DNA of 22,740 nucleotides from a virus. The stretch covers positions 1 to 22,740 of IMG/VR virus record IMGVR_UViG_3300030493_000264; one strand, given 5' to 3'. Below, piece by piece: positions 5,768 through 20,835 of this stretch. The notes under the pieces were generated by a model. It saw only the letters and a program-made list of their open reading frames with translations. It was not told the DNA's origin and made no database searches. Numbering within the stretch: position 1 is the stretch's first letter; each line of letters begins with the position of its first letter. The translations under genes were made by a program, and so were the position numbers.

Positions 5768-6025
5768 ATTACACCTGATGAGATAATAAAGATAATTACG
5801 GCAATCAGTGACCTATTGGATACTAAGAAACGGGTATTCATAGGACTGGTAGTTCTCTGTATAGCATATTTTGCAACCACGAACCCGGCCATCAATCAGA
5901 CATACACCGGCCAGTGGGTCAACGCGGCAATGATGGTGATCTCATTCTACCTGGGATCCCATACTGAGAAGATGAAGAAGGGAGAGGATCAGGGCGGGGA
6001 TGGCACGGTTGGAGGATCTGGATGA
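5768..6025 (+). CDS. Small two-TM membrane protein, putative holin
   Basis: Two hydrophobic helices (VFIGLVVLCIAYFA and WVNAAMMVISFYLGS) and a charged tail, at the head of the viral operon. The frame is open from an ATT at 5768, 7 nt after SD GAGGTG (5755-5760); the ORF track start is TTG 5816. Confidence 0.55.
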   Translation: MTPDEIIKIITAISDLLDTKKRVFIGLVVLCIAYFATTNPAINQTYTGQWVNAAMMVISFYLGSHTEKMKKGEDQGGDGTVGGSG

Positions 6026-6699
6026 AGCCTATTCATTGGCTCCTGATCTTTGCATTAATTGCCCTGATTCTCGTCTGTCTTGATCTGTCACTGTCCCAGG
6101 CCGAGGTGACTATAGATAAAAACATCCACGTAGGCGGGAACGGCACTCTCTACAGCTCAGCTAAAGCAGACACCGGCATAGGAACGGCAGGAAACCGGAT
6201 AACTGGCCAAGGTGAGCAATATCTTGAAGACAGTGTAGACATGACCGACGAACAGACCACGCTCAACACATCTTACAGCTTGACCTCTGAAACGCCCTGG
6301 TTTCATAACGCCTATATGACCTATACCGCTACATCAAACAGGGACTACAGTCGCTACCTCTCAACATTTGGTAGCAGGACATTCAGAGTCGAGACTGTTC
6401 TCAAGGCCAATGATACCGAACTCAGATCCAACATAGAAGCAATTGGCGATGCGGGCCAGGCAACGGATGTCATAGTCGATGCCACTAAGAAGAAGCCTAT
6501 AGAGCTCTCTAGGACCGTAGTCACAGGCCCTTTCGAGCTGGGGATAAAGTTTGATGCCTTTGTCCCTGCCAAGATTAGTGCAGACTGGCTCCCCTGTCCT
6601 TCGGGCATTCAGCTTGGCAATTCTACCACATGGCGCCCCAGGAACCAGATCGGAAACATGAGCGACATATTCGACGTTGCAAGGGGGAACAGGTCATGA
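6022..6699 (+). CDS. Secreted or membrane-anchored protein of unknown function
   Basis: ATGA-coupled to the previous gene. N-terminal hydrophobic signal (IHWLLIFALIALILVCLDLSLSQA) followed by a Thr/Ser-rich beta-type body. Confidence 0.7.
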   Translation: MKPIHWLLIFALIALILVCLDLSLSQAEVTIDKNIHVGGNGTLYSSAKADTGIGTAGNRITGQGEQYLEDSVDMTDEQTTLNTSYSLTSETPWFHNAYMTYTATSNRDYSRYLSTFGSRTFRVETVLKANDTELRSNIEAIGDAGQATDVIVDATKKKPIELSRTVVTGPFELGIKFDAFVPAKISADWLPCPSGIQLGNSTTWRPRNQIGNMSDIFDVARGNRS

Positions 6700-6875
6700 A
6701 TGAGGATAAGCTGACCTCGGTCCTGGTCCGGGCCGGGCATCGGAGGCGCATCAAGGAGAACTCTGAACGGAGTACGCCAAACATCCGGCCCCAGGTAGCG
6801 TTCAGCCTGGAATGTACCTTGCGGGCATTAGCTGCCCATCGGGCCTCTCAGGGGGTGGAACCAATGGGTCAATGA
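6696..6875 (+). CDS. Small basic hypothetical protein (59 aa)
   Basis: The ATG at 6696 overlaps the TGA of the upstream gene (ATGA). Sequence MNEDKLTSVLVRAGHRRRIKE... Confidence 0.55.
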   Translation: MNEDKLTSVLVRAGHRRRIKENSERSTPNIRPQVAFSLECTLRALAAHRASQGVEPMGQ

Positions 6876-6995
6876 CCCCTCATCCCCAGCCACATCCTTT
6901 CAACATTGATCAGTTACATTGTTCTTGATACTAGCTAAAATGTCACCCAATAATCTGGCCTGTCCAGATCAGTCAATGGCTGGCCTAAATCGGTG

Positions 6996-7053
6996 AATTG
7001 GCTGGGCAGAGGCCAGACAAATTACCCAAAACCCACAGTCAACCCAGCCAATT
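6996..7053. repeat. 11-bp perfect inverted repeat upstream of terS
   Basis: AATTGGCTGGG (6996-7006) and CCCAGCCAATT (7043-7053), 36-nt spacer. Confidence 0.85.
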
Positions 7054-18420: not shown

Positions 18421-18426
18421 GGCAGA

Positions 18427-19689
18427 ATGACGATAGAATTCAAGATCTACAACAAGACCGGGGCGGCCATTATCCCTGATATCATCTCCTTTCGACTGGA
18501 AGAGACGTTCATGGATCATGCAAGCCTGGTCTTTAGAACTGCTGAGTCTGCAATCCTCAAGAACATGTCCAAGGTCGAGGTCAGAGATGGAACCACTCCT
18601 CTGTTTATGGGCTACATTTACAAGCCTGAAAAGGTGGCGTCACCTGACGAGCCCAGCAACTTCTACTGTTATTCAGTCTCAAAGCTCCTGGAGTACCGAT
18701 ATCCGCCCTCCATGACTTTTGAATCAGGAACTATGATCAAAGAGGTGATCAATGACGCCATAGGGACTACTGGCGTTCTTGCAGATGCCAATCACAGGCT
18801 GAACTTTGACATGTGGCTTGGGCCAAACGCACCAAACTATACCTGGTATATCAGGAACCATGGGACGAACAGGTTTGTAGCCCCATCAACAATGTACATA
18901 GGGGCCACACCCATAACTCACGCTACATCTCTGGCAGCCATAGGCGTAAATCAGTGGTGGCAGACAGCCACGGAAATGTACGTCAGAACCTCTTCGATCA
19001 TACCCCCGGACAACTCGCCTTATTGCTACTGGCAGGACTACAAGAGCACGAGCATCAAGCGCATGGTCGGCCTTGATGACACAGGGCTTAATGATAGAGT
19101 CTACACATTCCGGGATGAGTCTATTTACTCGTTCCTGGCCAGGCTCTTTAAAGCCAACCATCTTGAATATGAGTACCAGCCCAACAATGACGGCTTTACC
19201 TATCTACGGTTTGCCCAGAACATAGCCAACGGCTCTAGCGTGGCGCCTGTGATCACTTTTACCAAAGACTCGAACGTCATAAGGATTAAGTTCACGACCC
19301 TGGATCATGACAAGTACGGGTTTAACGCCTACTCTGTTGAGTGCAAGACCTTTACTCACTCAGATATATCATCGGTCCACAATGCGAGCACTGATCTGTA
19401 TTTCTGGCGAGACTCTTACACCAAATCTCCAACCCTGACCAGCGCCCAGGCTTCGGCGGCTTCGCTTACTGAATACGGTAAAAAATGGTATCAGTGCTAT
19501 GGAGGATATGAGGGCCTGCCTGTTGAGGTCACGATGAAATATGCATCATCCCCGGCCCTGGTCTGTGGTGATTGGGTCTGGCTGGTTGCAGCAATTGGCA
19601 GGACTTACAGAATACTCTCCAAGATCACCGAACTGGCAGACGGCAAGCTAACGGCCACCATGACGCTTCATGATTGGTATAACTTCTGA
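18427..19689 (+). CDS. Tail-tip/baseplate hub-like protein (putative)
   Basis: N-terminal SLVFRT..VEVRDG..LFMGYI..FYCYSVSKLLEYR..IKEVI and later IYSFLARLFKANHLEYEY resemble Tal/gp27-like hub folds. Position is before the fibre. Confidence 0.5.
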   Translation: MTIEFKIYNKTGAAIIPDIISFRLEETFMDHASLVFRTAESAILKNMSKVEVRDGTTPLFMGYIYKPEKVASPDEPSNFYCYSVSKLLEYRYPPSMTFESGTMIKEVINDAIGTTGVLADANHRLNFDMWLGPNAPNYTWYIRNHGTNRFVAPSTMYIGATPITHATSLAAIGVNQWWQTATEMYVRTSSIIPPDNSPYCYWQDYKSTSIKRMVGLDDTGLNDRVYTFRDESIYSFLARLFKANHLEYEYQPNNDGFTYLRFAQNIANGSSVAPVITFTKDSNVIRIKFTTLDHDKYGFNAYSVECKTFTHSDISSVHNASTDLYFWRDSYTKSPTLTSAQASAASLTEYGKKWYQCYGGYEGLPVEVTMKYASSPALVCGDWVWLVAAIGRTYRILSKITELADGKLTATMTLHDWYNF

Positions 19690-19698
19690 GGTGGAAAG

Positions 19699-20835
19699 AT
19701 GGATGACTATGAGAGAATGAGATTTCTTGAGCGGTATGCTGGGGTGTCTGGATGGATCAACTCGCCAGATGTGTGGACCTATGCCTCGGCTGCATTCCCA
19801 TATTATACATTCACAGTTCCTGGAGATAGGAGAGATATTCTTTACGAAGGAATCAGGGTCAAGCTTACCCAGGCCTCAGTCAAGTATTTTCTGGTGACCA
19901 ATGCCACATATGCAGCCCCAAACACGACAGTTACCCTTTACGGTGGGGGAGATTATGACCTGGCAAGTGCGCTTATAACAGATCCATACTACTCGCCGGA
20001 TTATGCGCCCTCCGGCTACCTCCTCTATTTTGATGAGGTCCTTGACCCGGAGGCGGACCAGTACGCCCATATAAACAGTATAGAGACTGGCGATGTAACC
20101 CGAAATACCAAGATTGCTAACTTAGAGAGTGGCTGGGTAGCCGTAGCTGATACCTGGACGTTTGGAGCTGCCGATGCCCCGACGTTCACCTTTACCATTC
20201 CAGCCGACAGAAGGGCCACGCTCTACCCAGGGGTCAAGATCAGGCTCACTCATGCGGCTGCGGTTAAGTATTTCATAGTTACTGCATCCAGCTATTCGGC
20301 ACCTAATACCACAGTTACCGTTTACGGTGGCACTGATTATGTTCTTGCAGCCGGTGCTATCACCTCACCGTATTATTCGACCGCCAAAGCCCCCACAGGC
20401 TTCCCGCTCAATTTTGATAAATGGTCTGTCATAGTCAGCAATACAAGCGACGTGACCCAGGCCAGCCCCACTGCAGGCACCTGGTACAACCTGGGCTCTA
20501 TATCAATTCCTGTTCCAATTGGGCTCTGGCTTGTCAGCTATGAAGTGACTCTGCGCGTTACAAGGGCAGCTGCTGGTGTTGTCGATGAGTTTGTCACGCT
20601 CTCCGATGCCAATAACACTGAGCTTTCCAAGACCTGGACTGGGCACATCTATGCCTCGTATGCTATCGATTTCCGTGGAACAATTACCCAGATCCCAACT
20701 GTAATCAGTCGGCCTTCCACAAAGGCGACTTATTACTTGAACGCAAAGACCAGCACGGCCAGCATGACCAATATATATTTTTACGGCGCCACCGCAAGGA
20801 CCACAACGATAAAAGCAATTTGCGCTTACCTCTAA
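19699..20835 (+). CDS. Tail fibre / receptor-binding protein
   Basis: Last gene of the operon. Internally duplicated ~90-aa module (19750-20019 and 20131-20406) plus a C-terminal beta-sandwich-like head. Confidence 0.65.
   Translation: MDDYERMRFLERYAGVSGWINSPDVWTYASAAFPYYTFTVPGDRRDILYEGIRVKLTQASVKYFLVTNATYAAPNTTVTLYGGGDYDLASALITDPYYSPDYAPSGYLLYFDEVLDPEADQYAHINSIETGDVTRNTKIANLESGWVAVADTWTFGAADAPTFTFTIPADRRATLYPGVKIRLTHAAAVKYFIVTASSYSAPNTTVTVYGGTDYVLAAGAITSPYYSTAKAPTGFPLNFDKWSVIVSNTSDVTQASPTAGTWYNLGSISIPVPIGLWLVSYEVTLRVTRAAAGVVDEFVTLSDANNTELSKTWTGHIYASYAIDFRGTITQIPTVISRPSTKATYYLNAKTSTASMTNIYFYGATARTTTIKAICAYL

Follow-up and report, generated by a model that had tools for sequence, protein, structure and literature searches.

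The window analysed here is a stretch of 22,740 nt that makes up the entire single-contig virus record IMGVR_UViG_3300030493_000264, and our subject is its gene block at positions 5768 to 20835. We read this block, with a probability of about 0.64, as the virion operon of a temperate or plasmid-like Caudoviricetes virus of the Methanotrichaceae with a tube-less stub tail; on the best reading, this stub tail descended from the parts of a long tail. From 7124 to 20835 the genes form one tightly packed operon on the plus strand (gaps between neighbours of -74 to +31 nt), in which an HK97-fold capsid protein, TerL, portal and maturation protease, i.e., the morphogenetic module of Caudoviricetes (Duplodnaviria), are all present. 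Only three genes come after the head-to-tail adaptor, at spacings of 11, 6 and 9 nt, and these gaps of 6-11 nt leave no room for further genes. Searches of the block proteins against Pfam and PHROG gave no tube, sheath, chaperone, tape-measure, Dit, integrase or replicase match. An initial annotation, made from the letters alone, had described an unbroken block from head to fibre with three post-adaptor genes, no tail-shaft genes and no integrase or replicase, and the gene calls, the gaps and the family searches bear this out; a candidate ribbon-helix-helix (RHH) regulator and a ParA/partner pair lie just outside the block. The features of the operon are the following (immunoglobulin is abbreviated as Ig).

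7124..7768, plus strand: TerS-like protein, 214 aa, assigned by position only, without family match; overlaps TerL by 74 nt
7695..9248, plus strand: TerL, large terminase subunit (phrog_2, E 6.4e-40)
9252..10763, plus strand: portal, Mu type (PF06074, E 2.1e-21; phrog_113, E 1.1e-58)
10760..12457, plus strand: UDG-like domain fused to an XkdF-type prohead protease (PF03167, E 3.6e-14; PF14550, E 4.1e-22; phrog_3017, E 5e-26)
12417..13346, plus strand: conserved head-module protein, 309 aa, helical and acidic, with an EISFV-type starting strand (phrog_17741, phrog_13547)
13347..14084, plus strand: scaffolding protein (phrog_673, E 3.3e-19)
14107..15087, plus strand: HK97-fold major capsid protein (phrog_1005, E 1.3e-62)
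15119..15535, plus strand: head-to-tail adaptor, 138 aa, ATG at 15119 (phrog_1732, E 1.7e-18)
15547..15966, plus strand: tail-terminator/tail-completion N-domain of a 957-aa protein (AlphaFold2 model of residues 1-140, pLDDT 86.6)
15967..18420, plus strand: Ig-like repeats (Big_9/Y_Y_Y type) with an inserted BNR/Asp-box beta-propeller, part of the 957-aa protein
18427..19689, plus strand: baseplate-hub-like protein, 420 aa, gp27/Mu gp44/Tal/VgrG class (predicted structures only)
19699..20835, plus strand: fibre/receptor-binding protein, 378 aa, with a duplicated N-terminal domain of ~100 aa and a C-terminal module of ~235 aa
20836..20890, plus strand: oligo-T runs immediately 3' of the fibre stop codon (read from the sequence), likely an archaeal terminator that ends the operon

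Neck and tail proteins

The operon has a single small neck protein, the adaptor, to which other assemblies likewise give 138 aa; phmmer matched it to two neck chains, 9c39_C of Sf14 (E 3.6e-4) and 11bp_M, which is named 'Head to Tail protein gp72'. Its position directly after the capsid gene resembles that of the head-to-tail connector gene gp35 of Sf14, which follows the capsid gene gp34. The next gene (15547-18420) encodes the 957-aa protein, for which a tail-terminator fold of residues 1-140 is well supported by the predicted structure: the top Foldseek matches of this model are tail terminators, and it aligns with that of the gene transfer agent (GTA) RcGTA (6tba_4A; Z 12.8, root-mean-square deviation 3.1 Å over 123 residues), lambda gpU (Z 11.8), T5 p142 (Z 11.4), the tail of the archaeal virus HFTV1 (Z 9.3) and SPP1 gp17 (Z 9.0), and the alignments overall span the whole domain (120-131 residues, 3.1-4.5 Å). 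In addition, Pfam Tail_completion_gp17 (PF11367) matches two homologues of the protein, with a best E of 1.3e-5. The terminators of RcGTA, lambda, T5, SPP1 and HFTV1, which share this fold, cap tubes that are assembled on a tape measure. Here neither tube nor tape measure is encoded, and ~800 aa of Ig repeats and propeller are joined to the terminator domain. Big_9 was recognised in 24 of the 34 homologues, the BNR/Sortilin matches are weak and lie at residues 522-585, and the Ig part is 31-38% identical, over about one third of the query, to Methanothrix/Methanosaeta surface proteins. The Ig repeats and the propeller presumably form six arms of the terminator ring.

With moderate confidence, the 420-aa protein may be regarded as hub-like. 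Its family is small, and the ESM Atlas model of its exact sequence (pTM 0.64) aligns over residues 1-420 with the YqbQ, Mu gp44/GpP-like, Prophage_tail (siphovirus Tal) and VgrG clusters at TM 0.60-0.65. The predicted fold would thus resemble the T4 gp27-class hubs over its full length, and the gene stands just before the fibre gene, as is usual for this class; however, the protein has no sequence similarity to these hubs, and neither a Dit nor a tape-measure gene lies upstream. The 378-aa protein is a predicted receptor-binding fibre: its C-terminal module is common to 4982 representative proteins and is elsewhere fused to collagen repeats, a pectate-lyase beta-helix (tailspike phrog_2234), GH43 or C1q. 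The identity that had been guessed for the three post-adaptor proteins (terminator-like/Ig/propeller, hub-like and fibre) thus agrees with the fold, the predicted structure and the module searches, respectively.

Related loci and selection

About 45 related loci were examined, comprising 32 IMG/VR loci from a scan with the terminator N-domain alignment, further metagenome loci from exact look-ups, and six loci in metagenome-assembled genomes (MAGs) of Methanothrix, Methanosaeta or Methanotrichaceae from a scan with the capsid alignment. One homologue is a named Methanothrix protein, and together with the six MAG loci this supports the host that had been suspected, the Methanotrichaceae. When the terminator-Ig and hub proteins were compared by tblastn with 50,697 phage records, nothing matched.

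In neither the window nor any of these loci was a tube or tape-measure gene detected, as would be expected if the tube-less layout were proper to the lineage, and HMM searches of the window and of 20 accessory proteins chosen to represent the relatives matched no tube or sheath family. PhageMin_Tail (PF10145) matched none of 30 whole related records, while it matched eight of 14 control genomes, including two of methanogens. The only large structural-strand open reading frames (ORFs) without assignment in the relatives are propeller or lectin fusions. One relative is particularly informative: the 43.8-kb contig of IMG/VR 3300028916_000006 (loci L033 and L048/L049) carries the two parts of its capsid gene at opposite ends, each end also bearing ~75 nt of unrelated sequence, and for this reason we consider it a circularly permuted, near-complete circular genome, although IMG/VR lists it as linear. 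Its genes include those for ParA, for a D5-like primase-helicase of 843 aa and for the short tail module, and no tape measure was matched in it. A second relative, the provirus L007, passes into host genes (CobD, MFS, Usp, Na/H-exchanger and GlnA) within ~500 nt of its hub and fibre genes, and no tail gene is found past the fibre.

The layout of the window, in which the terminator-Ig gene directly follows the adaptor or is separated from it by a holin, recurs in L001, L002, L003, L028, L045/46 and L058. The holin, with three transmembrane segments (PF05105, Phage_holin_4_1), lies between the adaptor and terminator-Ig genes in L002 (9573-10004), L003 (2062-2484) and most relatives with the same head, and is absent from the window and L001; this gene of 140-146 aa had been considered as the missing stopper and was rejected as such on account of its holin match. 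Other relatives carry four to seven extra genes ahead of the terminator-Ig gene, which encode Kelch-like propeller, coiled-coil, DUF2190-like, Ig-like and lectin-like proteins and a PF23140 homologue. In L045 the same set comes after the hub, so that its position relative to the hub varies among relatives; because of this and because none of them matched a tube or tape measure, we regard the extra genes as movable fibre or decoration genes rather than a tail shaft. The possibility that the seven extra genes of relatives of the L019 type are a tube and tape-measure set was rejected on the same grounds, since they are propeller, coiled-coil, decoration-like and Ig-like proteins. The same tail module is also borne by a second head type. 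After the terminator-Ig gene, relatives carry either a hub of the 420-aa type or, in half of them, an unrelated protein of 587-807 aa with a Fascin/FRG1-like beta-trefoil; the latter was not called a hub, because hhalign found no similarity between it and the 420-aa family.

All structural genes are under purifying selection, with ratios of nonsynonymous to synonymous substitution (dN/dS), computed against L001 and L007, of 0.007 for the capsid, 0.036 for TerL, 0.049 for the adaptor, 0.09 for the hub (dS saturated), 0.18 for the fibre and 0.31 for the terminator-Ig protein. The tube-less layout is a conserved and selected feature of this lineage of Methanotrichaceae viruses and not a recent deletion.

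Two side observations concern the relatives. The 138-aa protein encoded just upstream of the terminator-Ig gene in L026 (9581-9997), and also in L022, L023, L027 and L059, matches PF23140 ('Podophage GP4 fiber I protein gp80', E 2e-32), and this similarity appears to link these archaeal viruses to a part of a Ralstonia podophage. L045 (ENA ctg44633c, 82 kb) is a related provirus that adjoins a host CHAT/TPR gene; it has no TerL call upstream of the portal and an insertion sequence (IS; DDE_Tnp_1) among its accessory fibre genes, and it may be a decaying or domesticated copy.

Alternative explanations

The initial annotation had offered four explanations, a short tail with a hub under the neck, a GTA-like system, a satellite and a clean deletion; the first is favoured here, while mobility genes, genomic contexts and the element's own hub and receptor-binding protein weaken the other three. 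A host-maintained GTA-like system, i.e., the same stub-tailed particle in domesticated form, packing random host DNA, is improbable. It would agree with the lack of integrase and replicase matches in the window and with L045, given its host neighbours, missing TerL call and IS insertion. There is also a precedent, since FpGTA of Faecalibacterium has been described as the first podovirus-like GTA (PMC12946183). FpGTA and RcGTA resemble the present system in having a phage-derived head and a short or no visible tail, but they are host-fixed and without mobility genes. The present lineage is not a fixed, vertically inherited host locus of this kind, although the flanks of the copy in the window are unassembled: its members occur in differing contexts with an integrase (L002), the ParA/partner pair (window, L003 and G004) and the D5-like primase-helicase; several are classed as proviruses by IMG/VR (all IMG/VR relatives being linear or provirus); the hub, fibre and Ig modules are swapped among relatives, as in free-living viruses; and the MAG copies vary in layout instead of representing one conserved locus. 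Because of the integrase, the ParA/partner pair, the primase-helicase and the provirus classing, a mobile temperate or plasmid-like virus is preferred to a host-fixed GTA.

Just as improbable is the explanation that tube, tape-measure and chaperone genes of a long tail sit elsewhere, in an unassembled part of the genome. The window is indeed incomplete and breaks off at IS copies: terminal repeats, whether direct or inverted, are absent, its ends (1-77 and 22685-22740) are transposase pieces (the tail of one ORF and the head of another), and five other assemblies of the same element stop 887-954 nt past the RHH gene, which shows that a multi-copy IS flanks the element in every sample. The CheckV-type completeness of the relatives is also limited (9-64%), and the capsid relatives belong to phage genomes of ~60 kb. 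However, the genes for tube and tape measure normally lie between those for terminator and hub, and here the latter two are 6 nt apart; the near-complete 43.8-kb relative and 29 other whole records contain neither a PhageMin_Tail match nor a structural-strand candidate, and in L007 it is host genes that come after the fibre gene.

A defective provirus remnant, from which the segment from tube to tape measure was cleanly deleted, ranks below these two. Its best argument comes from the Roseobacter phage RDJL Phi 1 (Xiamenvirus), which, like other phrog_1005 phages of ~60 kb, has a capsid 33-38% identical over 96-99% of its length and whose head gene set is similar to that of the window; it is annotated with a full long tail and continues with Neck1, a terminator, a major tail protein, a 1029-aa tape measure and tail-tip genes, all of which are absent between neck and tip in the window. 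The IS elements at the contig ends and the absence of the holin that most relatives have would also fit a deletion. Against it, the tube-less layout is common to relatives down to 28-45% protein identity and to two head types, dN/dS is far below 1 for every structural gene, including those past the supposed deletion, and the element recurs in identical form in at least five independent metagenome samples. The least probable explanation is a satellite with its own heads that takes the tail of a helper virus, in the manner of capsid-forming phage-inducible chromosomal islands (cf-PICIs), which carry head genes and connectors but no tail: although the element is small, has a full head and packaging set and shows no recognised replication gene in the window, it is not restricted to head and packaging genes, and a tail-stealer is disfavoured because the element has its own terminator ring, hub-like protein and receptor-binding fibre, which would be needless for it and are all under purifying selection, and because no helper with a matching tail was found among the related loci.

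Several points nevertheless weigh against a stub-tailed virus. The particle is a prediction from genes. The hub call leans on an ESM Atlas model of middling confidence without support at the sequence level: the family has no Pfam or PHROG match, profile searches against PDB and Pfam were empty, and the AlphaFold2 model from a 15-sequence alignment is poor (pLDDT 39.9). Foldseek on this weak model returned nothing significant, although a comparison of its residues 1-90 with hub and Dit proteins gave Z 6-7.9 for the N-terminal domains of the latter. Unusually, the search for a stopper or head-closure protein that would sit between adaptor and terminator ring found none. The absence calls depend on profiles trained mostly on bacterial phages, and accessory proteins of 171, 219, 245, 653 and 667 aa in the relatives are without family assignment. 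Furthermore, the closest capsid relatives come from the ~60-kb phage genomes, with a terminator and a tape measure annotated in the RDJL Phi 1 record, and the window is an IS-bounded fragment, so distant tail genes in this copy are conceivable.

Proposed assembly model and comparison with known short tails

For the stub-tailed virus we propose the following assembly. The portal dodecamer would bind the 138-aa adaptor, on which the terminator N-domains of the 957-aa protein would dock as a ring, presumably hexameric as in solved tail terminators. This ring, which in long-tailed phages caps the tube, would extend arms of host-like Ig repeats with the BNR propeller at their tips, and it would most likely serve as the direct platform for the 420-aa gp27/Tal-like hub. 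The hub, presumably a trimer, would close the channel and hold the 378-aa receptor-binding fibre; arms and fibre may together bind the Methanothrix surface or sheath, and the DNA would leave through a channel formed by portal, adaptor, terminator and hub.

In classical podoviruses (T7 gp11/gp12, P22 gp4/gp10, phi29 gp11/gp9) and in podophage GP4, the tail is short and without a tape measure, as is expected here. However, no Pfam or PHROG match to classical podovirus adaptor, nozzle, collar or knob families was obtained among the window proteins, and the adaptor of the window matches myovirus neck chains and not adaptors of the T7/P22 type. The presence of long-tail-type parts (terminator and gp27-like hub) suggests a separate route to the short tail. 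We put at about even odds the more specific scenario that Methanothrix viruses reached a short tail separately from all characterised podoviruses, in that they lost tube and tape measure, kept the ring and the gp27-like hub, and made a six-armed adhesin of the terminator through fusion with Ig repeats from host surface proteins; the result would be a 'zero-length' tail, in which the terminator touches the hub. Among archaeal viruses, one family with podovirus morphology has been listed, the Shortaselviridae of HSTV-1 (PMC8651126). HSTV-1 is a head-tailed archaeal virus with a short tail like the one predicted here, but its host is a haloarchaeon.

No description of the present lineage was found in the literature searched, which left out a 2023 compendium of methanogen viruses and the HSTV-1 structure paper. 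Methanothrix is a major acetate-using methane producer in digesters and wetlands, and we know of no Methanothrix virus isolated so far. Should the predicted particle prove correct, a neck ring, a hub and a fibre are enough for a working tail, and this would be a natural example of short tails evolving from long ones, with host-derived Ig arms as the means of holding on to the unusual Methanothrix sheath. As marker genes, the terminator-Ig fusion and the hub may help to find these viruses in digester metagenomes.

Head genes, flanking genes and repeats

Some observations on the head genes concern their boundaries in the relatives. The TerS-like protein is 97% identical in L001 (dN/dS 0.19), and homologues of the 309-aa protein occupy the same position in L002 and many other loci. 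The protease-bearing ORF is much longer (957-1065 aa) in relatives including L018 and L022-L027, while in L002 portal and protease lie within a single 601-aa product. In the window, the 309-aa gene and the protease gene share 41 nt, and the EISFV-type strand at the start of the 309-aa protein resembles the end of the protease domain (12417-12500); the protease domain may be split or be reached by a frameshift.

The window contains neither tRNA genes nor Rfam RNAs. The following genes lie at the head of the block or beside it.

953-2468: ParA (PF13614, E 6e-63) and partner gene, just outside the block
5816..6699, plus strand: two overlapping small genes at the head of the block, encoding 69 aa (two hydrophobic helices) and 225 aa (N-terminal signal/transmembrane segment)
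21105..21827, minus strand: RHH protein facing the operon end (PF01402, E 0.0024, under the family cut-off)

Homologues of the ParA/partner pair directly follow the tail module in L003 and are also present in the 43.8-kb relative, which suggests a plasmid-like maintenance of these viruses. The two small membrane or secreted proteins at 5816-6699 matched no Pfam or PHROG family and possibly have a role in egress or exclusion. The RHH protein is a candidate regulator; in L018 and L028 its homologues lie beside the tail module and are encoded on the other strand. Finally, an imperfect direct repeat of 111 nt (3774-3884 and 22293-22403; 76% identity, with a near-perfect core of ~40 nt) brackets a unit of 18.5 kb, in which an AT-rich gene of 293 aa lies together with the virion operon and the RHH gene; this repeat may represent an att-like boundary or a duplicated control region.

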